This document shows, in pieces, positions 1 to 27,500 of a stretch of 64,000 nt of DNA; position 1 is the stretch's first letter, and every line of letters starts with the position of its first letter. Under the pieces are notes generated by a model, which saw only the letters and a list, made by a program, of their open reading frames with translations, had not been told where the DNA came from and made no database searches. The position numbers were made by a program, and so were the translations under genes. This DNA comes from an uncultured Pseudomonadota bacterium (lineage in GTDB: Bacteria > Myxococcota_A > Polyangia > Fen-1088): positions 227,902 to 291,901 of the forward strand of contig CAWKBC010000034.1 of NCBI GenBank assembly GCA_963847705.1, in the 5' to 3' direction.

Positions 1-1050
1 GGGATTGGTCCCCCCCGAGTACGACCCCGCCCGTTCGTCGTCGTTCGCGAACACGTAGATGTAGTGCGCCCCGATGATCACCTCTTTCTTGAACACCGCG
101 CCGACGTGCCCGTGCGCCACGAACGTCGACTCCTGCGGCACCGGCCCCGGATACGGGTCCCAGGCCGGCAGATTCTCGTTCGCGCTCACGCTCGCCGTAT
201 TTCCTGCCGGCGGACCGTAGAACGGGATCGGCTCCAGCTTGCCGCCGAACCCCTCCTCGACCTCGAAGGTCCAGTCGTCGACGTCATAGTCGTACGTCGC
301 CGTCTCGCCCGCCGTGTGCGTCCGACCGAACAGGTATGTCTCGTACCGGCCCGCGTCGTAACGACCGGCCGCGCCGTAGCGGTTGGTGTACGCCCCGGCG
401 ATCAGCGTCAGCCGCGCGTTCTCGCTCACGAACTCCGGCCAGGTCATCGAGAGGAACGCCTCGTTGATCCCCAGGTTCGACTCCAGCCGCCGGTAGCCCG
501 AGTCGGTGATGTTGTAGGAGGCGATCTGCACCGTCGCCTTCACCCGGTCGTTGCCGTAGTGGAAGTTCAGCTCGGTCCAGGGGCCGACCATGCTGTTCGT
601 GTAGCGCCAGTCGATGTAGTTGGCGTCCGGCACCAGCGGCGGCGTCCGCAACTGCGTCCCCGCGTTCCCGGGCGCGAACGGGTTCTGCGTCGTCGGCGGC
701 CCCCACGAAAAGCGCAGCGGCGCCCGGAAGTACCCGGTCACGTCGAACTTCCACTCGCCGGTCGCCGGCTCCTCGGGCGCGGCCGGCGCCGACTCCGTCG
801 TGGTGTTCGCCAGGCCCCCCACCTGCGGCGCCTCCGGGCTGAGCCCCAGCGCCGGCGCGCTGCCGCCCTTCTTCTTCGGCGCCGCCGCCGGTGCCGCGGC
901 GGGCGCCGCGGGCGTCACCTCCGGCGCTGCAGCAGCGGCCGGCGCCTCTTGGGCGAAGACCGACGACGAGAGAGGGGGAACCGCCAGCAGGAGACTCGTC
1001 AAAGCGATCGACCGACCGACCGGTCGAATCAAGGACACCAGGTTTCTCAT
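1..1050 (-). CDS. Secreted outer-membrane beta-barrel / porin-like protein, runs off the left edge of the window
   Basis: Not in the ORF track because it has no stop in the window. Manual translation from ATG 1050: MRNLVSLIRPVGRSIALTSLLLAVPPLSSSVFAQ (signal peptide), an Ala/Pro linker, then aromatic amphipathic strands (WKFDVTGYFRAPLRFSWG, WTELNFHYGNDRVKATVQI, YTNRYGAAGRYDAGRYETYLFGRTH). Frame is open to position 1. Confidence 0.75.
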   Translation of the reverse strand, partial: MRNLVSLIRPVGRSIALTSLLLAVPPLSSSVFAQEAPAAAAAPEVTPAAPAAAPAAAPKKKGGSAPALGLSPEAPQVGGLANTTTESAPAAPEEPATGEWKFDVTGYFRAPLRFSWGPPTTQNPFAPGNAGTQLRTPPLVPDANYIDWRYTNSMVGPWTELNFHYGNDRVKATVQIASYNITDSGYRRLESNLGINEAFLSMTWPEFVSENARLTLIAGAYTNRYGAAGRYDAGRYETYLFGRTHTAGETATYDYDVDDWTFEVEEGFGGKLEPIPFYGPPAGNTASVSANENLPAWDPYPGPVPQESTFVAHGHVGAVFKKEVIIGAHYIYVFANDDERAGSYSGGTNP

Positions 1051-1063
1051 CGTCCGTGACCCC

Positions 1064-1079
1064 AGCAACGGTCGCGCCA
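1064..1079 (-). promoter_or_regulatory. sigma54 (RpoN) -24/-12 promoter for the porin-like gene
   Basis: Minus strand reads TGGCGC-GACCG-TTGCT, against consensus TGGCAC-N5-TTGCW with exact GG-N10-GC spacing. It ends 13 nt upstream of ATG 1050. Confidence 0.65.
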
Positions 1080-1127
1080 ACGTGGCTCCTGCCCGAAACA
1101 GGCCTCCCCGGCTTCCTGGACGGGGTC

Positions 1128-1160
1128 CCGGACGTCCGCCGGACGTCCGCCGGACGTCCG
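1128..1160. repeat. Perfect 3 x 11-bp tandem repeat CCGGACGTCCG, each unit containing the palindrome CGGACGTCCG
   Basis: Units at 1128-1138, 1139-1149 and 1150-1160, between two divergent sigma54 motifs. Confidence 0.9.
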
Positions 1161-1198
1161 AACGGCGAGGAACTGCGCCCGAAACCACCGGGTCGCGG

Positions 1199-1214
1199 TG
1201 GCACCGAGGTTGCT
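1199..1214 (+). promoter_or_regulatory. sigma54 -24/-12 promoter for the TPR-PEGA/lipoprotein operon
   Basis: TGGCAC-CGAGG-TTGCT is a perfect consensus match, about 90 nt upstream of ATG 1303. Confidence 0.75.
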
Positions 1215-1302
1215 GACACCGAGGTCGCACGAGCGAATCGCCAACACCAGACAGGTAGGAGCCGGCGATGCGACGAACACGTATGATGGCTGGAAATGGC
1301 CG

Positions 1303-2457
1303 ATGGTCGCTAGGCGGAGGGGGCTGAGAAGCACGGCGCTGCTCGCCGGGCTGTTGGCGCTCGGCGCGGCGCGGATCGGGCACGCCGACGATCCGCGGGG
1401 CGAGGCGCGCGCCCACTACGCCAGGGGGGTGGAGCTCACCGGCCAGAATGGGTACGAGGAGGCGCTGCGCGAATTCAACGCGGCGTACGCCATCAGCCCG
1501 CAGTTCGCCGTGCTCTACAACATCGGCCAGGCGCACATCGCGCTCGGGCACACCGTGGAGGCGATCGAGGCGCTCACGCGATATCTGCGCGACGGCGGCG
1601 ATCGGATCTCGCCCACCCGCCGCACGCAGGTGGAGCGACAGATCGCCGGGCTGCGCTCCACCCTGCCCAACCCGGAGGGGACGTCCGAGGCCGAGGCCGC
1701 GCGGGCGAACGCGGCCGCGGCGGCGGCGGCCGCCGGCGAGGCGATCGAGGCGGCATCCGAGGGCTCGCGCGCCGCCAGCGTCGCCCACCCGGGAACGTTG
1801 ACCATCCGCTGCCCGGAGCCCGGCCTCAAGCTCTCGCTCGACGGCAAGCGGATCGATCTGGCCACCTCGAGCCGCGGCGTGGCCCTGCCAGGAGGGGTGC
1901 ATCATCTCGTTCTGTCCGCCCCCGGACGGCGCTCCGTGGAAGAGAGCCTGGAGATCGCGGAGGGGGGCGTCGCTCTGGTCGTCTGCGAAAATCTCCCGGC
2001 GGCCACGGCCTCACCGGCCATCGTGCCGTTGCAACCAATCGGCCCGCCGGTGTTTGCCGCCGTCCCCACCAGCGCCGAGACGCCGACGATCCACGCGAGG
2101 ACCGTGGCCTACCTCCTGGGCGGCCTCGGCGTGGCGCTCGGAGGAACCGCCATCGGCGTCTACTTCTGGAACCGCGCGCAGTACCACGATGTGCAGGCGG
2201 AGGGGAAAGGCCTCACCCCGATTCCGCCGCCGAACCAATACGAGCAGGCCGTCCAGTACAACGCGGATGTCGACGCGCTCCACCGCAACAGCGTTCTCAC
2301 CGTGGGGCTCGCGGTGACGAGCATCTGCCTGCTCGCCGGCGGCGCCTATCTTTATCTCCACGAGCGAAGACACGACTCCCGGACGGGACAGGCCGACGCC
2401 TCGGGGAGCTGGGCCTCGGTCACGCCGGGCGGCGTCTTCTGGAACGCCGTTTGGTGA
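1303..2457 (+). CDS. Secreted TPR + PEGA-like domain protein with hydrophobic C-terminal anchor
   Basis: Signal peptide (RRRGLRSTALLAGLLALGAARIGHA), TPR helices (ARAHYARG..YEEALREFNAAY..VLYNIGQAH), PEGA-like beta domain (GTLTIRC..LSLDG..LPGGVHHLVLSAPG), two hydrophobic helices, and C-terminus GVFWNAVW. Start placed at ATG 1303 (ORF track 1198). Confidence 0.85.
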   Translation: MVARRRGLRSTALLAGLLALGAARIGHADDPRGEARAHYARGVELTGQNGYEEALREFNAAYAISPQFAVLYNIGQAHIALGHTVEAIEALTRYLRDGGDRISPTRRTQVERQIAGLRSTLPNPEGTSEAEAARANAAAAAAAAGEAIEAASEGSRAASVAHPGTLTIRCPEPGLKLSLDGKRIDLATSSRGVALPGGVHHLVLSAPGRRSVEESLEIAEGGVALVVCENLPAATASPAIVPLQPIGPPVFAAVPTSAETPTIHARTVAYLLGGLGVALGGTAIGVYFWNRAQYHDVQAEGKGLTPIPPPNQYEQAVQYNADVDALHRNSVLTVGLAVTSICLLAGGAYLYLHERRHDSRTGQADASGSWASVTPGGVFWNAVW

Positions 2458-3197
2458 CAACCGTGCGTCGCACAACCTCGAGCTCGATTCGGTTCGCGCT
2501 GCTCTCGGCGGCGCTGCTCTCGCCCGCCTGCTTCAGCCTGCCGAAAGCCGACGTCAGCACCCACGTGATCGCCGACTTCGAGGAGGACGCCGGCGCTGGC
2601 CTCCTCCCCACCTGGAGCGCGTTCACAAAATGGACCTGCAGCGCTTTCGCCATCCGCGATCAAAGCACCGGTGACGCCGGGGCCGATGGTGGATCCCTCA
2701 CCGACGCCGGTCAGCCCCCGAGCGTCGACGGGGGTCCGCCCCTGGCGTGCATCTTGGGCCCCGGCGACGGCAACCCACACGGGCTGGCGGCGACCTTCGA
2801 CCTGGCCCCACCGAGCAGCACCTTGGGCGTCGCCGTCACCACCGAGACAATGTCCGGAACGGTCGACTTCACCGGCTTCAAGACCTTCCAGTTCGACGCC
2901 AGACTGTATCCGGCCACCAAGGTCCCGCCGGGGACGCAGCTGGAAGTCGAGCTCGGCTGTGCCACGAACACGACAGACGTCGTCGCCTCCCAGATCGCCG
3001 TCATTACCGTGGGGGCACCAATCTGGGCTCCAATCGCTCTTCCTCTGGCCGGCTTTCAGGTCACGCCCAGCTCGCAGAGCCGAACCTCTTGCCTGAGCAC
3101 GGTCGACCGATTGAGCTTCGTCGTCCTTCTCCCCGCGGGGGCAGACCCAATCGCCGGCACGTTGCAGCTCGACAACATCGAGCTGACCAACGACTAG
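2454..3197 (+). CDS. Lipoprotein with carbohydrate-binding-module-like (CBM11/CIA30-type) beta sandwich
   Basis: Lipobox LLSPAC; motifs VIADFE, VDFTGFKTFQFDAR, W..IALPLAGF, GTLQLDNIEL. GTG start overlaps the upstream TGA. Confidence 0.7.
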   Translation: MTTVRRTTSSSIRFALLSAALLSPACFSLPKADVSTHVIADFEEDAGAGLLPTWSAFTKWTCSAFAIRDQSTGDAGADGGSLTDAGQPPSVDGGPPLACILGPGDGNPHGLAATFDLAPPSSTLGVAVTTETMSGTVDFTGFKTFQFDARLYPATKVPPGTQLEVELGCATNTTDVVASQIAVITVGAPIWAPIALPLAGFQVTPSSQSRTSCLSTVDRLSFVVLLPAGADPIAGTLQLDNIELTND

Positions 3198-3201
3198 CCA
3201 C

Positions 3202-4593
3202 TCACTCGTAGGGGTTCTGGGGATCGAACGTGGCGGGGGGGACGGACGGCTTGCCGGCGGCCGCCGCCGGCGCAGCGGAAGAGGCGGCCGAGGTGGGCGC
3301 CGGCCGCGCCGGGTGTCGCCGCGGGGGATGAGCCGCGGCGGATCCGCCCGCGCCCGCGAGCGGGTGAAGGGGCGGGGCGGCGTTCAGCGCGGGCGCCACA
3401 TTCGTGGTGAGCGCTCCGGGCGCCGGCACCGACGGTTGCTCACGCGACGCGAGCGGTGGCTTCGCTGCCGGAGCGTCCGCCTCGTGCGACACCACCAGCG
3501 GCTTCTGTCGGCCCAGGCCCAGCGCCGCGAGAGCCCCCGCGACCGCGAGCGCCGACGCGCCGACGATGAGCCCGATACGACCGGGACGCCAACGCCGCGG
3601 TGCCCGGCTGGCCGGTTCGACGGCGCCCACGCTCCCGCGCGTCTCGCCGCCGATCGGCGAGGGAGGCGTCGACGAGAGGCGCGCCGCGCCCGAGTCGTCG
3701 AGCTTGGGGGCCGGCCAGACCTCGCGCCTGACGAAGGGCGCGAGCGCCTCCACCAGCGCCCCGGCCGACGCCGGACGCGCCGCCGGCTCGGGGGCCAGCG
3801 CGCCGGCGACGATCGCCAGAAAGCCGACGGGCAGGTCGGCCACGACGGACTCCAGCGGCACCGCCGGCTGCGTGGCGATGTGGTGAAGGATGGCGTTGTG
3901 CGATTCGCCGGGGTGCGGTTTCCGCCCCGAGCAGAGCTCGTAGAGGATCGCCCCCAGCGCGTAGACGTCCGAGCGCTGGTCGACGACCTTGTCGCCACGC
4001 GCCTGCTCCGGGGACATGTACGCCACGGTCCCGACCACCGCGCCGGTCCGCGTCGCCGCGTTCAGCTCGTCGATCGTCTGCAGCTTGGCGACCCCGAAGT
4101 CGAGCACCTTCAGCAGATCGGTCCCGTCCTGCCGCCGGCAGACGAACAGGTTCTGCGGCTTGAGGTCGCGGTGGATGATCCCCGCGGCGTGCGCGACCTC
4201 CATCCCGCGGCCGGCCTGCGACACCAGATCGGCGGCGCGTCCGACGGGCAGGGTCCCTTCGCGCCCCAGGAGCGCCGTCAAGCTCTCGCCGACCAGGTAC
4301 TCCATCACGATGTAGGGCGCGCCGTCCTCGGCGATGCCGAAGTCGACCGCCGCCGCCACGTGCTCGCTCTCCAGGGCGCCGGCCGCCTCGGCCTCGCGCT
4401 GGAACCGCGTCAGGATGTCCCGCCGCTCGGCGAGATCGCGACGCATGAACTTCACCGCGAAGCGGCGCCGCACGACCGTGTGCTGCGCCTCGTACACCAC
4501 GCCCATCCCCCCTTGAGCCAGCAGGCGAACGATCCGGTACTTGGCCCCGACGAGCTCTCCCACCCGCGCGACCGCCACCGAGCCGCTGGTCAT
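3202..4593 (-). CDS. Membrane-anchored Hanks-type Ser/Thr protein kinase
   Basis: GGMGVVY, AVK, HRDLKPQN, DFG and GTVAYMSPEQ motifs; one TM helix (IGLIVGASALAVAGALAALGL); Pro/Ala-rich tail ending FDPQNPYE. Confidence 0.95.
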   Translation of the reverse strand: MTSGSVAVARVGELVGAKYRIVRLLAQGGMGVVYEAQHTVVRRRFAVKFMRRDLAERRDILTRFQREAEAAGALESEHVAAAVDFGIAEDGAPYIVMEYLVGESLTALLGREGTLPVGRAADLVSQAGRGMEVAHAAGIIHRDLKPQNLFVCRRQDGTDLLKVLDFGVAKLQTIDELNAATRTGAVVGTVAYMSPEQARGDKVVDQRSDVYALGAILYELCSGRKPHPGESHNAILHHIATQPAVPLESVVADLPVGFLAIVAGALAPEPAARPASAGALVEALAPFVRREVWPAPKLDDSGAARLSSTPPSPIGGETRGSVGAVEPASRAPRRWRPGRIGLIVGASALAVAGALAALGLGRQKPLVVSHEADAPAAKPPLASREQPSVPAPGALTTNVAPALNAAPPLHPLAGAGGSAAAHPPRRHPARPAPTSAASSAAPAAAAGKPSVPPATFDPQNPYE

Positions 4594-6017
4594 TCTCGCC
4601 GCTCGTCCGCCTTGCGGAGCGCCTCCAGGTCGACGGCCTGCCCCTCCATCAAACGATAGGCGCGCTGGCGGCTGATTCCCAGCATGGCGGCGGCGCGCGC
4701 CACGTTGCCCCCCGAGGCCCGCAGGGCAACGACGAGCGCCGGCAGCTCGACCGGCTCGGGTGACCCACCCGGCGCCGGGCGCTCGGCGCCGGATGACCTG
4801 GCGACCAGCTCGGGCGGAGACGACGCGCTCGAGCTGCCGGCGCTCCCGGCGCTCCCTGCTTGGCCGGCGATCCGTTCCGGCAGATGCTGCGCGCGCAGCG
4901 TGACGTCGCTACCGTGCAGGGTCACCAGGCGCTTGGCCAGCAGCACCAGCTCGCGCACGTTGAAGGGCCAGTCGTGCATGCAGAGCCGCTCCGCGAAGTC
5001 GCTCTCCATCGCGGGGACACGCCCCTGCCCGATCTCCTCCAGGAGGCGCGAGAAGAGAGGCAGCACGTCCTCGCGGCGCTTGCGCAGCGGCGGCAGGCGG
5101 ACGGTCAGCCCGTCGAGGCGCGCCAGCAGATCGGCCCGAAAGCGCCCCGCCCGCACCGCCTCGATGAGCGGCTGCTGGCCGGCGACCACCACGCGCACGT
5201 CGATCGGGACCGGGTGAACCTCGCCGAGCGGCTGCACCTCGCGCTCCTCGAGGACGCGCAGCAGCTTGGCCTGGAGCCCGAGCGGCAGGTCCGAGACCTC
5301 GTCGAGCAGCAGGGTTCCCCCCTGCGCGCCCCGAAAAAACCCGGCGCTGGCCCGATCCGCGCCTGTGAAGGCGCCGCGGCGATAGCCGAACAGCTCCCCC
5401 TCGGCCAGCCCCTCGGGGAGCGCCGCGCAGTTGACGGCGGACAGCGGCCCCGACCGGCCGCTCCAGCGGTGGAGCGCCCGGGCCGCCAGCTCCTTGCCGG
5501 TCCCGGTCTCCCCCTCGAGGACGATCGGCAGGTCGCTGACCGCCGCCGTGCGCAGCGGCGCCAGCGCCGCTTGCAGCATGGCGCCGCCCCAGAGGCCGGG
5601 CGCGATCTGCGTGAATTCACCGCCGCTGGCCGCCACCACGCCGACCCAGCCGCCGAGACGCACGACGTCGCCCACGCCGAGCTGCGCCTCCGAGACCGGG
5701 CGGCCGTTCACGCGGACACCGTTGCGGCTGCCCAGGTCGGCGATGCGCACGCCCGAACCGGGCGAACCGGGCGAACCGAGCTCGACGTGCAAGATCGCGT
5801 GCCTCCGCGAGACATCGTTGCCCGTCAGGCAGACGTCCGAGGCCTCGTCCCGTCCGATCGTCAGCTCGCGCTTGCGCTCTCCGTGCAGCGCGACCGGCGC
5901 GCTCGAGCGAGGAAATAGCCAGACCAACGCGGCTTCCTGGGAGTCCACGCTCGCGGCCGAGGCCGCCTCGGTAACCGTCGTGTTACCCCCGCCCGAGCTC
6001 ATTGGTGGCCGATCCAT
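4590..6017 (-). CDS. FHA-domain sigma54-dependent transcriptional activator (bEBP)
   Basis: FHA (IGR..VSRRHA..DLGSRNG), Walker A GETGTGKE, GAFTGA, LLLDEV, WPFNVREL, Fis-type HTH (GGNVARAAAMLGISR). Its stop overlaps the kinase ATG. Confidence 0.95.
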   Translation of the reverse strand: MDRPPMSSGGGNTTVTEAASAASVDSQEAALVWLFPRSSAPVALHGERKRELTIGRDEASDVCLTGNDVSRRHAILHVELGSPGSPGSGVRIADLGSRNGVRVNGRPVSEAQLGVGDVVRLGGWVGVVAASGGEFTQIAPGLWGGAMLQAALAPLRTAAVSDLPIVLEGETGTGKELAARALHRWSGRSGPLSAVNCAALPEGLAEGELFGYRRGAFTGADRASAGFFRGAQGGTLLLDEVSDLPLGLQAKLLRVLEEREVQPLGEVHPVPIDVRVVVAGQQPLIEAVRAGRFRADLLARLDGLTVRLPPLRKRREDVLPLFSRLLEEIGQGRVPAMESDFAERLCMHDWPFNVRELVLLAKRLVTLHGSDVTLRAQHLPERIAGQAGSAGSAGSSSASSPPELVARSSGAERPAPGGSPEPVELPALVVALRASGGNVARAAAMLGISRQRAYRLMEGQAVDLEALRKADERRE

Positions 6018-20225: not shown

Positions 20226-20502
20226 CGCATCGGCGTCAGCTCCCTCCGTCGGAGGGGGCCAATTGACGAACCTCGATGTTCTCCAGCATCAGCGCTGTCC
20301 AGCATCAGCGCGCCCGAAGCACAATCACCGTCGCCGAGGTCGAGCTGGGTCTGGAAATCGACACCGTCGATCACCTCGAGACAGTCGCTCAACGCGACGG
20401 GCGGCTGTCCCAGATAGGGTGATTGTGAGAAGGAGGCGAAGGGGATGCAGCCGACGCAGGTCGCCGTCGACAGGATCGTGGCGGTGGGGACGGGACGAGG
20501 TT

Positions 20503-22863
20503 TCATCGCCTGGAGGACCTCGCTGCAGTCGGGGTCCCGCACGAGCCGCTGCTGTCGCAGGTGGCTGGCGCCACACAGTCACCGTCGGAGGTGCACGCGT
20601 TCTTGCAGACGTTGGCGCCGCACTGGTACGGCGCGCACGAGCTCGAGCTGGGCGACAGACAGGTCCCCGAGCCGTCACAGGCGCGTGCCGCCGTGAACAG
20701 ATCGCTCCCCACGGGACAGCTCTGGCCGGCGCATACGGTCCCCGGGAGATACTTTTCGCAAGCGCCGTTGCCGTCGCACCGGCCGTCGGTGCCGCAGGAA
20801 GAGGCGCCCTGATCGCCGCAAATTCCCGCGGGATCGACCACGTGCGGGGGGACGTTGGTGCATGTTCCAAGTGCGCTGCTGAGGGCGCATGACTGGCACA
20901 CCCCGGTGCAGGCCGTGTCGCAGCAGACTCCCTGGGCGCAGTTGCCGCTCGCGCACTCGGCGGATTGCGAACAGGAGGCACCGTCGGTCTTGAGGCCGCA
21001 GCTCGAATCGACGCAGACGCTCGGCGATGCACACTGACTGTTGTTCGAGCAACTGCCGAAGCACTGCGTGCCATTACACTCGAACGGAAAGCACGGCAGA
21101 GGGTTGGGCGCGACACATTGGCCGGTGGCGCCGCAGCTCGAAGGCGGGGTGTAAGCGCCCCCCGCGCAGGTCTCGCTCGCGCAGACGGTCCCTGGGGCGT
21201 AGAGGGCACAACCACCACCGCCGTCACACTTGCCGTTCGTGTCACAAGATGCGGCGCCTCTGTCGACACACAACCCGCGCGGGTCGGGGTTACCGGCCGC
21301 GACCTCGGCGCAGTGCCCGGGCGAGCCAGGGAGGTTGCAGGCTCGGCAGCTGCCAGCGCAGGCACTGTCACAGCAGACGCCGTCCACACAGGTGTTCGAA
21401 GCGCACTCGCCGGCACTCACACAGCTCTGGCCAGGACGCTTGGGGCCGCAACTTCCGTTCACGCATGCATGTCCAGCCACACAGTCGCTGTCGGTCTGAC
21501 AGCTCGCGAGACAGGCTCCGTCCACGCAGAGGAACGGAGTGCAATCGAGGGCGCTTCCCGAACGGCACGTCCCCAAACCATCGCAGCTCCCTGCCGTGTT
21601 GAGAACGTTGCCCGAGCAAGACGGCGCAAGGCAGAGCGTATCGGTCGCGTAGTTCGCGCAACCGCCCAAGCCGTCGCAGGTGCCGTTTTGTCCGCAGGTC
21701 GAAGCCCCATGATCGACGCAGATGCCACGGGGATCAGGGTTGCCGGCGTCGATCTGCCAGCAGGCCCCCAGGCGCCCCGGAAGATTGCAGGCGACGCAGC
21801 CACCTTGGCAGGCGACGTTGCAACAGACGCCGTCGGCGCAGAACCCCGTGATGCAGTCGAGGCCGGTCTCGCAGTGCGCCGCCAGTTCCGCTTTGCCGCA
21901 ACTGCCGGTGGCGTCGCAGGTCTGTCCGGCGGCGCACTGGGCGTTGCTCGTGCAGCCTTGCTCGCAGGCGCCAGTCGTCACGTCGCAGGTGAACGGCAGG
22001 CAGAGGATCGCGGTCAGACCCGCGATGCACCGACCAGCTCCGTCGCAGCTGAAGGCACCAATGACGGCGTCACCTGAGCAAGTGCCGCCCACGCAGGTGT
22101 TCCCCAGATAATTCCGGCAGGCGCCGGACCCGTCACAGGTTCCGTCCAGCCCACAGGACGGGGGCGCGTCGGGCGGGCAGTCAGTGGGGTCACGCGGACT
22201 CGCGCCTACCGGCCGTGAGATGCAGGTCCCCACCGAGCCCGACTCGGTACAGGTCTGACAACCACTGGTGCAGGCATTGTTACAACAGACCCCTTCGACA
22301 CACTGCTTCGAAGCGCACTGGCCGTTGGTGGCGCAGATCTGTCCAAGCGCTTGCAGGCCACAGCCGCCGTTCACGCAAGCGACTCCCGATCCGCAGTCCG
22401 CATCAGTCCGGCACGAACAGCTGTTCGTCTTGGCGTTGCAGCCGCCGGAACCGCAGTCGGTGGGCTTGCTGGCGATGCAATTTCCCGCGCCGTCGCAGGT
22501 GGCGGCAGGCGTCCAGACCGAGCTGGTGCAGGTCGACGCGGCACAGACCCCGTGAGGATCCAGGACACCCGCGGGTACAGGGAGGCATCGACCCGCGGGA
22601 GGCGAATAATAGTCGGCGCTCGTCGAGAGCGGACCGCAGAACTCGCACGGGCCACGACAAGCTTCGGCGCAACAGTAGCCGTCGGCGCAGAACCCACTGA
22701 TGCATTCGTCGTTGCTCCCGCAAGGGACTCCGGGCGAGAGGCCCCCGTCGCCCGCGCCGGCATTCGCCTGAATGACGTTCACGTCGATGCAGCCGCCCCC
22801 GAGCACGGTCGACAGCGTCGCGGTCAGGACGGAGCAAACGACCCGGCGTTGCGCCGCGGTCAA
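20503..22863 (-). CDS. Cys-rich repeat surface lipoprotein (five ~145-aa repeats)
   Basis: TTG 22863 overlaps the upstream TGA; lipobox LGGGC; five repeats starting C-x5-C-x4-C-x4-CC and containing CDGxGxC. Confidence 0.85.
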   Translation of the reverse strand: MTAAQRRVVCSVLTATLSTVLGGGCIDVNVIQANAGAGDGGLSPGVPCGSNDECISGFCADGYCCAEACRGPCEFCGPLSTSADYYSPPAGRCLPVPAGVLDPHGVCAASTCTSSVWTPAATCDGAGNCIASKPTDCGSGGCNAKTNSCSCRTDADCGSGVACVNGGCGLQALGQICATNGQCASKQCVEGVCCNNACTSGCQTCTESGSVGTCISRPVGASPRDPTDCPPDAPPSCGLDGTCDGSGACRNYLGNTCVGGTCSGDAVIGAFSCDGAGRCIAGLTAILCLPFTCDVTTGACEQGCTSNAQCAAGQTCDATGSCGKAELAAHCETGLDCITGFCADGVCCNVACQGGCVACNLPGRLGACWQIDAGNPDPRGICVDHGASTCGQNGTCDGLGGCANYATDTLCLAPSCSGNVLNTAGSCDGLGTCRSGSALDCTPFLCVDGACLASCQTDSDCVAGHACVNGSCGPKRPGQSCVSAGECASNTCVDGVCCDSACAGSCRACNLPGSPGHCAEVAAGNPDPRGLCVDRGAASCDTNGKCDGGGGCALYAPGTVCASETCAGGAYTPPSSCGATGQCVAPNPLPCFPFECNGTQCFGSCSNNSQCASPSVCVDSSCGLKTDGASCSQSAECASGNCAQGVCCDTACTGVCQSCALSSALGTCTNVPPHVVDPAGICGDQGASSCGTDGRCDGNGACEKYLPGTVCAGQSCPVGSDLFTAARACDGSGTCLSPSSSSCAPYQCGANVCKNACTSDGDCVAPATCDSSGSCGTPTAARSSRR

Positions 22864-23921
22864 AACACGGCTCGGATCGAAAATGTCTCGCTCCATGGAT
22901 CGATGGCGGCGGTCAGCGGGGGCATCCGTTTTCCGAACCAGTGGTGCAATCCCGAGACCACCAGCAGCGCGCCCCCCGCGATCCAGGACCCGATCCCCAG
23001 ATACTGCAGGGTGTCGATGGTGGAGACGCGGTCGCTCTTTTCTGACGGTGAGCAGCCTGGGCTCTGATTGCAGGCGTCCTTGGCGGAGTCGAACTTCGTG
23101 TAGGCGATCCCGTAGAGCACCGTGCCGCCGACCAGCAGCACACCGCCGCCGGCGGCCGCGTAGAGGTCGAAGGACTGTCTCCGGGTCGACTTGCCTGGCG
23201 GCCGGTCGACCAGCGAGACCGTCACCTCGGTGGTCGGCGGGACCGCCGGAGCCGGCAGGGGCTTTGGCTCCTCCACCAGGGGCGGGATCTCCAGCGTGCG
23301 CTGTTCGGCCTCCCTGATCTCCAGCGTCGCCGTCCAGGGACGATGCCCGGGCGCGCTCGCCTTCACGGCATGCATGCCCGGATCGATCGGCATGGCGACG
23401 CCCAGGCCGCCTTCGTCGAGCGAGCCCGCTTCGCTGGCGACGGTGAGACCGGGGACTGGCGCCCGCGCCGTCAGGGTGAGGCGAGCAAGCTTCGGCTCGA
23501 GCGCGGCGACCTTTTCATCGGCGGCGCGCGCCCGATCCTCCCGCCCCTGCCCCCGCGCCAGGCGGGCCGCGGTCCTGTACTCCGCCCAGGCGGTGGCGGT
23601 CTTCCCTTCTGTCTGGTGGCAGAGCGCCAGGTTCAGCAGCGTTCCCGACGAGGCCTCCTGCGTATAGCTCTCGGTGAAACGCGCGCAGGCCTCGGCGGTT
23701 TTTCCGGCTGCCATCAGTCGCCGGCCGTCCTGGAAGAGGGCCTCGGCGGCGGGGGAGACCGCGCGCGCGGTGACCGGCGCCAGCCCCAGGAGCGCCGCGA
23801 CGGCGGCCGAGATCGCTCGAGACCGCCGCCACTTCACCCTACCCGTCCGGCCCTTCCGACCCCTCAGATCCGTCCGACCTGGCCGATCTGGCCGACCTGG
23901 CCGACCTGGCCTGCTTTTCAA
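22860..23921 (-). CDS. Secreted TPR + PEGA-like domain protein with hydrophobic C-terminal anchor
   Basis: AEALFQDGR..AC..F.ESY..GTLLNLALC..GKTATAW (TPR), IDPGMHAVKASAPG (PEGA-like), two hydrophobic helices, C-terminus FSIRAVF. TTG start is coupled to the kinase stop; alternative GTG at 23837. Confidence 0.87.
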   Translation of the reverse strand: MKSRPGRPGRPDRPGRTDLRGRKGRTGRVKWRRSRAISAAVAALLGLAPVTARAVSPAAEALFQDGRRLMAAGKTAEACARFTESYTQEASSGTLLNLALCHQTEGKTATAWAEYRTAARLARGQGREDRARAADEKVAALEPKLARLTLTARAPVPGLTVASEAGSLDEGGLGVAMPIDPGMHAVKASAPGHRPWTATLEIREAEQRTLEIPPLVEEPKPLPAPAVPPTTEVTVSLVDRPPGKSTRRQSFDLYAAAGGGVLLVGGTVLYGIAYTKFDSAKDACNQSPGCSPSEKSDRVSTIDTLQYLGIGSWIAGGALLVVSGLHHWFGKRMPPLTAAIDPWSETFSIRAVF

Positions 23922-25249
23922 GGCTCATCCCAGATTCGGTCCCGCCCGGTCTCGGACGGCGGCGGCGCCGGATGGCGGCGACGCGGGCGGACCGGGCTCG
24001 GCGCGGGAACCGCGAGCAAGGTCTCGCCCTCGGACAGCGCAGGCTTCGCTGGTGACAGGGGCGCCGCTGACGACACCGCGACGGGCGGCGAGATCCCGAC
24101 CGCTCCACTCGAGACCGCGATCGAGCCTCGACTGGTCTTTCGATGTGCGCCCCCCCAGACGACGGTCGCCACCAGCCCGCCTGCGACGGCCAGCGCCGCC
24201 CAGGGACGCGCGCGGCGCCACGGGCTCGTCGCCATCGAGACACCGGCCAGCGCTTGCGCCAGGGCCTCGATCTGCTCGGCGCAGGTGGCGAAGCGATCCC
24301 CCGGCCCGAACGCGCAGGCCCGGGCGAACCAGGCGTCGAAGGCCACGCCCCGGTCGCTGCCGAGAGCGCTCGGGCGCGCCACCGGCCCGCGCGACACCTC
24401 GCGCAGCAAGCCGACCCAGTTGTCACCCGCGAAGTAGTGACGCCCGCAGAGCAGGCGGAACGCGATCAACCCGAGCGCGAATCGATCCGCCGCCGCCGAG
24501 ACCTCCTTGGCGCCGATCGCCTGCTCGGGCGCCATGTAGCGTGGCGTTCCCAGAATCTGCCCGGTCGCGGTGGAGCTGCCTTCGCCTTCGGCGGTCATCT
24601 TGGCGATCCCGAAATCGAGGATCTTGACGATCGGCGGCAGGCCCTCGCGCTCGGCCAGGAAGAGGTTCTCCGGTTTGAGATCGCGGTGAACGATCCCTTC
24701 CCGGTGCGCCTTGTCGAGCGCGGGAGCGAGCTGGCGCATCCAATCGACGACCTCGGCCGCCGTCGGCCGGCGCCCGAGGGCGATCCGCTCGAAGTCCTGC
24801 CCGGCCAGGAGCTCCATGACCAGGAAGGGGGCCTCGTCGAGCTCGGGCGCCACGTCGGCGTCGACGACCCGGACGACGTGGTCGCTCTTCACGGAGCTGT
24901 GGATGCGCGCCTCGCGGCGGAAGCGCTCCACCAGCTCCGGCGTCAGCAGCGAGCGCGCCAGCATCAGCTTCAGCGCCAGGTGCTCGCCCGTGTTCGCGTG
25001 AATCACCTCGTAGACGGCGCCCATTCCCCCTTTGGCGATGAGGCGAAGCGGGCGGTACTTGCGGCCGATTGCCGCCGGCAATGCGACCGGCGTGGCCAGG
25101 GAAGGCGCCCGAGAGACCTCCGTGCGGCTGTCAGGAGCCTCCGCTGCGATCGGGGGGGTCGTCGCTTCTCCCGGTTGGTCCGGTGCCACGGCCTGCGCAG
25201 TATAGGCACGGTCGAGATCGGTTGTGCAGGTCTTGTACGACTTGATCAT
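23918..25249 (-). CDS. Membrane-anchored Hanks-type Ser/Thr protein kinase
   Basis: GGMGAVY, ALK, HRDLKPEN, DFG and GTPRYMAPEQ motifs; one TM helix; Pro-rich tail ending RDRIWDEP. The true start may lie about 60 nt further in. Confidence 0.95.
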   Translation of the reverse strand: MIKSYKTCTTDLDRAYTAQAVAPDQPGEATTPPIAAEAPDSRTEVSRAPSLATPVALPAAIGRKYRPLRLIAKGGMGAVYEVIHANTGEHLALKLMLARSLLTPELVERFRREARIHSSVKSDHVVRVVDADVAPELDEAPFLVMELLAGQDFERIALGRRPTAAEVVDWMRQLAPALDKAHREGIVHRDLKPENLFLAEREGLPPIVKILDFGIAKMTAEGEGSSTATGQILGTPRYMAPEQAIGAKEVSAAADRFALGLIAFRLLCGRHYFAGDNWVGLLREVSRGPVARPSALGSDRGVAFDAWFARACAFGPGDRFATCAEQIEALAQALAGVSMATSPWRRARPWAALAVAGGLVATVVWGGAHRKTSRGSIAVSSGAVGISPPVAVSSAAPLSPAKPALSEGETLLAVPAPSPVRPRRRHPAPPPSETGRDRIWDEP

Positions 25250-25281
25250 TGCCTGGCCAACTCGCGTAATACTCGGGTCAC

Positions 25282-26679
25282 ATGTCGGCCGGCGAGAATC
25301 ACCACGGGGGGGACGCGGATCGCGAGCTGGTGGTCTTCTCGAGCGAGGTCCGAACCTTCACTCTGCCGCGGGAAGGGACCGTCACGATTGGCCGTGGAGA
25401 GGCAAACAACGTCCGGATCGACGATCCCTCCGTCTCGCGCAACCATGCCGTTCTTCGGGTCGGCTCCCGGTTGGTCATTCAAGATCTCGGCAGCGCCAAC
25501 GGGACGATGGTGCGCGACAAAGCGGGAGCGGGCTCGGTGGGCGAGACGTTGAACGTTCGGCAGCTCCTCGGTCGGGAGGCCGACCTGGCGGTGGGCGACA
25601 CGATCCTGTTCGGAACCGCCAGCGTGGTGGTCCGCCACAAGCCGATCGTCGACCTTCCGGATCTCGCTGCCCAGCGTCCTGGGGTCGTCGTCCGGGCCCC
25701 CGCGATGCGCCTCATTTACGAGCAGGCTGCGCGCGCGGCCCGCACGCAGATCAACATCCTCATCCTGGGAGAGACGGGCGTCGGCAAGGAGGTGCTCGCG
25801 CGAGCCATTCATCTGCGCTCGACGCGCGCCAAGGGGCCGTTTCAGGCCATCAACTGCGCCGCCCTCACCGAATCGCTGCAGGAGAGCGAGCTCTTCGGTC
25901 ACGAGAAAGGGGCCTTTACCGGCGCGCATCAACCCCGCGCCGGCCTGTTCGAATCCGCCCACAGCGGGACCGTGTTTCTCGACGAGGTGGGGGAGCTCTC
26001 GCCGGGGGCGCAGGCCAAGCTGTTGCGGGTCCTGGAGGAGCGCGCGGTGACCCGGCTCGGTTCGAACCGTGCGCGCCCCGTCGACGTTCGCATCGTGGCC
26101 GCGACGAATCGGGATCCAGAGGCCGACGGTGCCTCCGGCCGGTTTCGCCAGGATCTCTTCTTTCGCTTGAACGGGATCTCGCTGTTGATTCCGCCCCTGC
26201 GCGAGCGCCGGGAGGAGATCGAAACCTTTGCCCGGCTCTTCGTCGCGGCGGCCTGCCAGGGGGTCGAACGAACGGCGACGCCGCTGCTGACGGCCGAGGC
26301 TCTCGAGGTCCTTCGGCAACACGAATGGAAGGGGAACGTGCGTGAGCTTCGCAATGCGATCGAGCGCGCCGTGGCCCTCTGCCCCGGCGACACGATCCTT
26401 CCGGAGCACCTGCCACCGGCCCTCCTCAAGGCCACGGAAGCGCGACGCGCGGCGGCGCTCGCGACCCCACCGTCCGCCGTCGGAAACCGCGCGGCCGCCC
26501 TGCCGGGCGAAATCGAGACGCTGGAGAAGGGACGCATCCTGGACATGCTCGCGGCCTGCGCGGGCAATCAGACGCAAGCCGCACGGAAGCTGGGAATCTC
26601 CCGCGGGACCCTGATCGCACGGCTCGCGGCCTTCGGTGTCCCCCGTCCTCGCAAGCGCGACGACGCGCCGGAGCGATGA
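25282..26679 (+). CDS. FHA-domain sigma54-dependent transcriptional activator (bEBP)
   Basis: FHA ([17 protein letters not shown]), [48 protein letters not shown]. Confidence 0.95.
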
Positions 26680-26691
26680 TCGTCCCGTAGC

Positions 26692-26707
26692 CGGCACGAT
26701 GATTGCT
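26692..26707 (+). promoter_or_regulatory. sigma54 -24/-12 promoter upstream of the ECF sigma factor
   Basis: CGGCAC-GATGA-TTGCT with exact spacing, starting 13 nt after the bEBP stop. Confidence 0.65.
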
Positions 26708-26879
26708 GTGCGTGCCGGCATGGTCCCGGACACGTCGTGGAGCTCGAGAGCGACCGGGCTCGTCGCAGGTTTCGAGCGCGCGGATGGCAGGTGAACCGCT
26801 TTCGCTCCCTGGTCATTGGTCTCCGGAGCCGGTACGGCGGGCGTCGCGAAAAGTTTCTCGGCGGTGGCCAGAGAGCTGC

Positions 26880-27500
26880 GTGACGGCCAACGATGGCAAA
26901 GCGACGGCCGACGAGGCGATGACCCGGTACGGACAGGGCGAAGCGTGTGCCTTCGGGATCGTCTACGACGAGGTAGCGCCCCGCATCGAGAAGTACCTGC
27001 GCCGCCACCTGCGCGAGACGGCGCTGGTCGAGGACGTCGTGCAGCAGACGTTCGAGAACATGCACAGGGCCCGCGGGACGTTCCTGCCCGGCTTCCCGGT
27101 CCTCCCCTGGGCCTTCACCATCGCGAGACGGCTCATGATTGACTGTCCGAAGAAGAGAGGCCGCGAGGTGTCACGCGACATGTCCGCGGAGGACGACGTC
27201 ATGAACGCGCTCTTCGTCGCCGCACGGGAGAACGGTGAGGAGAAGGTTCAAGCGCTCGAGACGACGGCGCGCCTGTTGGAGGCCTTCAACCAGCTTTCGG
27301 CGGTGAGGCGTTCCGTGTTCGAGCACGTGAAGATTGAGGGGCTTTCGTACGCCACGGTGGCGGCGATGCACGACCTCACCGAAGACAGCGTGAGAATGCA
27401 CGTTCACCGCGCGTCCAAGGCGCTGCGGGCGGTCGTCGACGGTGTGGAGCAAAGCCCCCGGACACCCAGCGCCAAGAAACAGGCGCCCCGGACTCAGTGA
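26880..27500 (+). CDS. ECF-family RNA polymerase sigma factor
   Basis: Region 2 (AF..VYD..VEDVVQQTF..PWAFTIARR..ID) and region 4 (L...RRSVF..KIEGLSY..VA..VRMHVHRA..ALR). Confidence 0.88.
   Translation: MTANDGKATADEAMTRYGQGEACAFGIVYDEVAPRIEKYLRRHLRETALVEDVVQQTFENMHRARGTFLPGFPVLPWAFTIARRLMIDCPKKRGREVSRDMSAEDDVMNALFVAARENGEEKVQALETTARLLEAFNQLSAVRRSVFEHVKIEGLSYATVAAMHDLTEDSVRMHVHRASKALRAVVDGVEQSPRTPSAKKQAPRTQ

Follow-up and report, generated by a model that had tools for sequence, protein, structure and literature searches.

Described systems and the cassette

Polysaccharide utilisation loci (PULs, with SusC/SusD) and the FecA-FecR-FecI system have in common with the cassette described here the theme of an outer-membrane channel, a glycan-binding lipoprotein, glycosidases and a dedicated envelope regulator. 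In Myxococcus xanthus, Jelsbak, Givskov and Kaiser are said to have described in 2005 sigma54 activators with an FHA-AAA+-HTH architecture (MXAN4899), and to have proposed a link between them and Ser/Thr kinases; genes for such activators are reported to lie next to kinase genes in that species. An activator with this architecture is encoded in a 64-kb stretch of DNA (the window) on contig CAWKBC010000034.1 (C34) of an uncultured bacterium (genome G000; 6.1 Mb, 69% GC) whose close relatives are uncultured Polyangia/Myxococcota. The gene belongs to a cassette that also encodes a porin-like protein, a secreted TPR-PEGA protein, a lipoprotein with a CBM11/CIA30 fold and a Hanks-type Ser/Thr kinase, and the cassette is best read as a Hanks-kinase/FHA-sigma54 regulon for the use of beta-glucan, likely cellulose, in Polyangia.

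Relays from the envelope to an FHA protein are known from type VI secretion systems (T6SS), where in TagQRST or RtkS-PpkA-Fha a lipoprotein or periplasmic partner acts on a membrane-bound Hanks kinase at its outer part, and the kinase phosphorylates an FHA protein (PMC6082577). The cassette resembles this relay, but its output would be transcription, whereas the output of TagQR/RtkS is assembly of a secretion machine. No T6SS genes occur in the cassette or its flanks, and homology between the partner proteins of the two systems is not established; the model of the window's TPR protein gives a weak match (E = 0.003), of a generic TPR kind, to one chain of structure 9k1u (RtkS-PpkA). In actinobacteria, GlnH-GlnX-PknG-OdhI/GarA joins a ligand-binding lipoprotein, a relay protein, a Ser/Thr kinase and an FHA protein with an N-terminal phospho-Thr (PMC9769921), and differs from the cassette in its amino-acid signal, soluble kinase and output to a metabolic enzyme. 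RsgI6-GH10/sigma-I6 of Clostridium thermocellum uses a near-inactive glycosidase as the outer sensor controlling glycosidase genes (PMC4711584). That sensor resembles the degenerate GH6 domains of sister kinases described below, although the window kinase itself has no glycoside hydrolase (GH) domain; RsgI6/sigma-I6 is an anti-sigma and sigma-I pair of a monoderm with neither kinase nor sigma54, whereas the cassette has a kinase domain in place of the anti-sigma-I. The M. xanthus FHA activators act in development and secondary metabolism (PMC4880591); the window's activator differs from them in what is predicted for it, namely a coupled kinase of its own, a partner in the envelope, glucanase genes as targets and a defined palindrome as site. 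Enhancer-binding proteins (EBPs) use tandem sites upstream of -24/-12 promoters (PMC7910581), and the part available of a review of bacterial EBPs (PMC7175178) does not mention FHA domains.

The initial annotation, made from the sequence alone, had likened the cassette to PULs and FecA-FecR-FecI. By its parts it belongs to neither, nor to the TagQR/RtkS and RsgI6 systems, and it resembles a PUL in its output: the barrel is porin-like rather than a TonB-dependent transporter, SusD and an anti-sigma/extracytoplasmic function (ECF) pair are lacking, and the targets are scattered genome-wide. We rejected SusC/SusD membership because the porin and lipoproteins have no Pfam or NCBIfam match and Atlas relates the porin-like protein to myxobacterial porin clusters and BBP2 (PF07642) at 0.97-0.99. 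Membership in FecA-FecR-FecI was rejected because a TonB-dependent transducer, an anti-sigma factor and an ECF sigma factor are all missing from the cassette; an ECF gene is present in 4 of the 41 loci closest to it, and 2 of 16 multi-copy palindrome promoters described below precede one. The parts thus have precedents (RtkS/TagR-PpkA-Fha, RsgI6, the Myxococcus FHA activators). In the literature searched, which lacks most subscription papers, we found neither this wiring nor a description of a combined kinase/TPR-PEGA/FHA-sigma54/glucanase system.

A tandem palindrome and its predicted regulon

With moderate confidence, we propose that the FHA-sigma54 activator likely binds tandem CGGACGTCCG palindromes and that, upon activation of its coupled membrane kinase, it would switch on a small regulon comprising genes for glucanases, porins and glycan-binding lipoproteins, the signal probably being plant beta-glucan (cellulose-derived) fragments. 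The cassette probably switches on plant-glucan digestion because the likely activator site also precedes cellulase and sugar-pore genes. Domain searches and reading of open reading frames and flanks bore out the gene parts and both sigma54 motifs of the initial annotation, as well as its arrangement of a porin-like gene divergent from the TPR and lipoprotein genes, with a sigma54 motif before each, adjoining a coupled activator/kinase pair. The minus-strand activator and kinase genes converge with the plus-strand TPR and lipoprotein genes, from which the porin-like gene diverges. All five cassette genes are intact and the palindromes are perfect. The annotation did not pick up the site that the activator probably binds, nor the sister kinases that carry GH6, nor the predicted cellulase regulon in other parts of the genome.

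The motif TGGCRC-N5-TTGC has only two matches in the 64 kb, at 1065-1079 (minus strand) and 1199-1213 (plus strand), where 0.37 are expected; two matches are reached in 5 of 100 shuffles. Both motifs are retained in three of six syntenic relatives, and sigma54 is encoded in the genome. All three perfect copies of CGGACGTCCG in the window form one tandem, midway between the two motifs and 39-81 bp from a -24 element, which is nearer than the 80-150 bp stated for EBP upstream sites (PMC7910581). In related loci, CGGACGTCCG-type repeats stand at 12 of the 13 sigma54 motifs that precede GH6 genes and at all three that precede porins. The triple is probably an enhancer, a predicted site of the activator that would serve both promoters. 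The earlier claim that the activator drives the porin promoter is very likely, as judged from the tandem palindrome in 3/3 porin promoters.

By Pfam, the activator has an FHA domain (E = 1.4e-15) and a Sigma54_activat domain (PF00158, E = 5e-53), followed by an HTH, and the hallmarks GETGTGKE, GAFTGA and LLDEV of sigma54 EBPs are present. The HTH sequence GISRQRAYRL, the recognition helix, is near-invariant in the activator's clade, and of the four FHA activators that G000 encodes only this one has it. Because the palindrome also co-occurs with this clade, the activator is its likely, predicted reader. In 174 genomes from the class's other families, a search at E <= 1e-110 that scored only eight candidates per genome detected no member of the clade. 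A further FHA-activator/kinase/TPR-PEGA cassette at 22860-26679 (region 20400-27500) has a different HTH and a kinase tail that ends in RIWDEP, and downstream of its TPR gene lie an ECF gene and a gene with Cys-rich repeats; it was rejected as a copy of this system owing to its ~41% identity, its different HTH and the lack of any palindrome in the window outside 1129-1160.

Genome-wide, 5 of 498 relaxed sigma54-like sites carry at least two palindrome copies (at most one mismatch each). Two are those of the window, and the other three precede genes for a GH5 (E = 6.6e-33), for CBM4-Ig-GH9 (E = 4e-97) and, on a weak match (E = 0.0017), for a GH44/GH39-like protein. In this strict count CGGACGTCCG ranks first of 160 composition-matched palindromes, the runner-up scoring 3. 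Another palindrome triple precedes a second GH5 gene at which there is no canonical sigma54 motif, and a double on contig C47 has no evident target. Across a survey of 61 genomes of the family, which are incomplete (clade membership at E <= 1e-160), palindrome and promoter occur together in 12 of the 18 genomes with the activator clade compared with 2 of the 43 without it, and the tandem palindrome in 15/18 compared with 10/43; for a reversed-palindrome control the counts are 7/18 and 16/43. Sixteen of 26 distinct sites that were read carry at least two copies, and they precede genes for GH6 (five), CBM4-GH9 (four), GH44-like proteins (two), a porin, a CBM-like protein, ECF sigma factors (two) and a small lipoprotein, three of these labels being assigned by inspection. 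Among the 10 sites with fewer than two copies, 2 precede glycosidases. A predicted regulon of glucanase and porin genes is thus well supported by sequence comparison, and with it the glycan-use theme of the initial annotation. The ECF genes lie directly after palindrome-sigma54 promoters in G007 (L143:1612-2229; L157:837-1300); ECF genes also lie beside several cassettes and may form a second regulatory tier.

Scanning species genomes yielded 80 loci, whose contents were scored with profiles built from them; many are cut by contig ends, and they overlap the genomes of the family survey, so the two sets are not added together. The cassette proved to be conserved, with the kinase beside the activator in 72/80 loci and TPR-PEGA in 50/80. 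The 41 closest loci hold the kinase (38), TPR-PEGA (22), the CBM-like lipoprotein (19), a glycosidase domain (32) and the porin (7), and the 39 distant loci hold the kinase (34), TPR-PEGA (28), the CBM-like lipoprotein (6), a glycosidase (5) and the porin (3). Activator, kinase and TPR therefore form the older, general core, and the tie to glucanases is confined to the close clade. The commonest order is a single operon of activator, kinase, TPR and lipoproteins, and the convergent layout of the window is a genus-level variant.

The window aligns to the related locus L046 on either side of a 1.2-kb gap that contains a GH6 gene. The rightward sigma54 motif precedes this GH6 gene in three of the six syntenic relatives; the other three have neither the gene nor a clear rightward motif. 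In five of the six, the TPR-lipoprotein operon has an element of its own, TGACG-18-TATGAT, identified by comparison of the loci; a sigma70 scan found no site. In the window the TGACG box is lost, replaced by the ribosome site and ATG of the GH6 gene. The conserved target of the rightward promoter is therefore a cellulase, deleted here, and we rejected that promoter as the ancestral one of the TPR and lipoprotein genes, since relatives have both the GH6 gene at that place and the TPR operon's own element. From these alignments, the TPR-lipoprotein operon seems normally to have a housekeeping-type promoter and to have come under the sigma54 motif by the deletion. Induction of the sensor genes by sigma54, as first proposed, is accordingly not general; the operon would be a target in this genome only.

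Kinase input and competing explanations

The kinase (Pkinase, E = 2.9e-40) has an intact VAIK-type Lys, HRDLKPQN and DFG, an activation-loop Thr and one membrane helix, beyond which it consists only of a Pro/Ala linker ending in FDPQNPYE. In 17 of the 41 close loci, a GH6 domain follows the membrane helix instead. A protein search returned 110 such kinase-GH6 fusions among 120 matches listed. Compared with solved GH6 enzymes, the GH6 domain of the query fusion reads EPN for the catalytic EPD and has lost KxPGESDG. The equivalents of Tyr73, Asp117 and Asp265 (T. fusca Cel6A numbering) are all kept in 24 of the 110 fusions among the matches listed, compared with 11/11 stand-alone GH6 proteins, and at least one is missing in the other 86; most fused GH6 domains of sister kinases would therefore probably bind rather than cut. 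The window kinase lies in a supported clade of 30 rows (98/93), in which fused and short forms occur together; a filter kept most of nine GH6 kinases with HRD[LI]N (7 loci) out of this tree. Among the fusions in the matches listed, 43/110 have HRD[LI]NPQN rather than HRDLKPxN; 40 of the 43 are also without a Tyr73 equivalent, with the catalytic acid retained in most of them, and they form a second subtype. One predicted protein, P0120, combines a LacI repressor and an intact GH6 domain, separated by a signal-like stretch, and may be a fused gene call. No kinase-GH6 fusion was found in G000 or in five relatives with short kinases, so the short kinase appears to be the working form there; four of these genomes (G000, G002, G005 and G014) have palindrome promoters.

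TPR domains commonly bind C-terminal peptides, which makes contact between the TPR-PEGA protein and the NPY tail of the kinase a fair inference from sequence. NPY is invariant in 35 aligned kinase tails, which were chosen for NPY. For 67 distinct kinases with enough flank, a TPR-PEGA gene lies next door to 35/35 GH6-less kinases with an NPY tail and to 0/9 GH6 kinases without one. TPR matches in the window protein fall below the Pfam cut-off (best E = 3e-5), and its PEGA domain has no Pfam match; a homologue has one (E = 7.6e-7), and in the model a beta-sandwich occupies the corresponding stretch. It is followed there by a helical hairpin, which is long and hydrophobic, and then by a beta-hairpin; the terminal residue is Trp or Phe in 27/27 aligned sequences. 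Such a C-terminal end suggests outer-membrane association. Foldseek matched the model to generic TPRs only, the hairpin and C-terminal strands being unmatched and of low confidence (predicted template-modelling score 0.35).

The start of the lipoprotein gene overlaps the TPR stop codon (GTGA), and the lipoprotein Cys23 is invariant in 25/25 aligned sequences. Its model (predicted local distance difference test 81.7) has a beta-sandwich fold of the galactose-binding-like kind and matches CBM11 of C. thermocellum by Foldseek (E = 4e-8; Z = 15.3, root-mean-square deviation 2.7 over 151 aligned residues). A second copy of the porin and its lipoprotein, 99% identical, is found on contig C35 (L045:2-8660) in the order GH1, TolB-like lipoprotein, porin, CBM-like lipoprotein, cellobiose phosphorylase (E = 0). 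This setting beside GH1 and cellobiose phosphorylase makes cello-oligosaccharide uptake by the porin likely. The idea that the C35 copy is under the same control was rejected, as neither a sigma54 motif nor a palindrome lies upstream of it.

In the proposed mechanism, the kinase would autophosphorylate its TRTG loop and phosphorylate a TT(V/I)T motif (Thr13/Thr14) at the activator's N terminus, which the activator's own FHA domain would read, releasing the AAA+ domain in a switch like that of GarA/OdhI. FHA domains bind phospho-Thr with the residue set G-R, S-x-x-H and N-G, and the activator keeps these residues (IGRDE, SRRHA, SRNG). Predicted phosphorylation of Thr13/Thr14 and self-reading are suggested by the TT-type motif, the intact FHA residues and translational coupling (the end of the activator gene overlaps the kinase start by ATGA), and on this sequence evidence the step from kinase to activator is likely. 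That phosphorylation would turn the activator on rather than off is a guess, taken as the more likely sign. Input to the kinase could come by either of two routes, through a degenerate GH6 domain fused at its outer end or through a TPR-PEGA relay; in the window's form, TPR-PEGA would grip the FDxxNPY tail and relay a signal from the CBM11-fold lipoprotein. This lipoprotein-to-TPR-to-kinase step, proposed from sequence, is the weakest part of the model. The porin and its lipoprotein would then import cello-oligosaccharides for the cellobiose phosphorylase encoded beside their second copy. More tentatively, we suggest that such systems may form a separate class of trans-envelope polysaccharide sensing in diderms, in which a Hanks kinase with interchangeable front ends (a fused dead GH6, or a CBM-fold lipoprotein acting via a tail-gripping TPR-PEGA) would read cellulose fragments and pass the signal on by direct phosphorylation of an FHA-sigma54 activator, which in turn would open promoters with CGGACGTCCG. 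On this more tentative reading, the common myxobacterial kinase/TPR-PEGA/lipoprotein triads would have a first function.

If the proposal is correct, kinase, substrate site, DNA site and target genes can be named for one FHA-type sigma54 activator, and the long-held idea of sigma54 transcription under the control of myxobacterial Ser/Thr kinases can be put directly to the test in E. coli. A route by way of a kinase would join those by which plant polysaccharides are known to be sensed, the findings would point to regulated cellulose use in a family of Polyangia that is uncultured and lives in soil, and they would suggest a role for the many TPR-PEGA genes next to myxobacterial kinases.

Several observations weigh against the proposed beta-glucan regulon and its sensor. 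In a looser genome count CGGACGTCCG scores 6 (the sixth site preceding a lipoprotein gene without a Pfam match) and many control palindromes exceed that, to a maximum of 24; two of the five strict hits are not independent, because the motif was discovered in the window. None of the four GH6 genes of G000 is among the hits of the genome scan, and the palindrome is present at 0/3 sigma54 motifs that precede GH39/44-like genes inside cassettes, so it is not a master cellulase switch. Kin are non-independent in every cross-genome count, and G007 (94% complete) has palindrome promoters, and the activator was not found in this genome. The TT-type motif occurs N-terminal to the FHA domain in 54/71 activators, a count with no background control for N-terminal Thr content. 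The tail does not track the TPR gene in every case: 4/5 GH6 kinases with an NPY tail have no adjoining TPR gene, and 11/18 kinases with other tails do have one. The best fold match of the lipoprotein is NDUFAF1/CIA30 (Z = 16.8), which does not bind sugar; CBM11 (PF03425) is unmatched in it, and a homologue reaches 17.5 bits against a cut-off of 27. The lipoprotein is also the least conserved protein of the cassette (35-54% identity across six syntenic relatives, compared with 58-93% for the others), a divergence that fits either varied ligands or weak constraint. Finally, distant activator-kinase-TPR loci seldom have a glycosidase nearby.

One competing explanation keeps the regulon and denies the lipoprotein a role as glycan sensor, making it part of a generic myxobacterial envelope module in which TPR stabilises or anchors the kinase and the signal is porin flux, envelope state or cell contact. 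The prevalence of the TPR gene over glycosidases in distant loci (28/39 and 5/39) and the fast divergence of the lipoprotein both fit it, as does the presence of a TPR-PEGA-like gene behind 7 of the 75 kinases of G000, whose tails and neighbours are unrelated; likewise, RtkS possibly only stabilises PpkA, a point left open in PMC6082577. We nevertheless regard it as unlikely, since in the close clade the TPR gene is nearly always followed by one for a beta-sandwich lipoprotein (the Polyangiaceae form is alike by inspection), and in sister kinases a cellulase domain has been taken up at this same position. Still less probable is a switch of opposite sign, in which the resting kinase holds the activator off, either because FHA docks on the phosphorylated kinase at the membrane or because the phosphorylated N terminus blocks itself, until glycan releases it. 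Phosphorylation of the N-terminal Thr of OdhI does switch that FHA protein off its target (PMC9769921), regulatory domains of bacterial EBPs are usually inhibitory (PMC7175178), and the HRD[LI]NPQN fusions may be weak kinases, but every catalytic motif is intact in the window kinase and in its close relatives.

That the window copy is a decaying relic, with its GH6 cargo lost, no sensor, and the activator idle or driven by another kinase, we consider very improbable. Deletion of the GH6 gene and of the -35-like box of the TPR operon would fit decay, as would frameshifted kinase tails in two relatives, which may be read errors. The five intact genes, the perfect palindromes, the three to four distant promoters that keep the palindrome, and the conservation of short kinase, TPR and lipoprotein in relatives where no fused form was found all argue against decay.

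Feature positions and duplicated porin genes

The features of the cassette are collected in Table 1.

Table 1. Features of the cassette and its flank. Coordinates are window positions unless a locus label is given; negative values lie to the left of window position 1.
Feature	Position	Strand	Details
Second CBM11-like lipoprotein gene	-797..-1615	-	after the porin-like gene, beyond the window
Porin-like gene, 5' part	1..1050	-	ATG at 1050; 604 aa; stop at -764, beyond the window
Sigma54 -24/-12 motif TGGCGC-N5-TTGCT	1064..1079	-	before the porin; conserved in relatives
Three tandem CGGACGTCCG palindromes, period 11	1129..1160	.	probable enhancer (upstream activating sequence) common to both promoters
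Sigma54 -24/-12 motif TGGCAC-N5-TTGCT	1199..1214	+	before the TPR gene here; before the GH6 gene in relatives
Leftover ribosome site and ATG of deleted GH6 cellulase gene	1257..1270	+	from alignment to L046; deletion junction ~1275-1279
TATGAT, conserved -10-like box of the TPR-lipoprotein operon	1282..1287	+	from comparison with relatives
Secreted TPR-PEGA protein gene	1303..2457	+	signal peptide; TPR of five helices; PEGA-like sandwich; long, hydrophobic helical hairpin; beta-hairpin at the C terminus with Trp as last residue
CBM11/CIA30-fold lipoprotein gene	2454..3197 (alternative start 2463)	+	lipoprotein Cys at 2529-2531
Hanks-type Ser/Thr kinase gene	3202..4593	-	membrane helix 3576-3514; Pro/Ala linker; C-terminal FDPQNPYE at 3228-3205
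FHA-AAA+-HTH sigma54 activator gene	4590..6017	-	start 6017 or 6002; TTVTE motif 5981-5967; GAFTGA; HTH GISRQRAYRL
Duplicated porin pair copies	window 1-921 to -1615 / L045:2355-4891; L164/L170; L165/L169; L171/L166

The 2.5-kb pair of porin and lipoprotein genes is present twice in each of four genomes, with 98.4-99.8% identity within and 83-87% between genomes, and its flanks and signal peptides follow orthology. The duplicates have probably been homogenised by repeated gene conversion, with assembly effects possible. A 35-bp unit that derives from the CBM-like lipoprotein gene's 3' end occurs five times (L044:1144-1318; window -1758..-1584), which may be an assembly stutter. A distant porin paralogue on contig C10 (L132:7850-11024) lies between arabinofuranosidase-like and galactose-pathway-like genes, and at window positions 58382-63860 genes for a lipoprotein, a barrel-like protein, a lipoprotein and ExbB/ExbD-like proteins stand in a row, the labels at both places being given by inspection.

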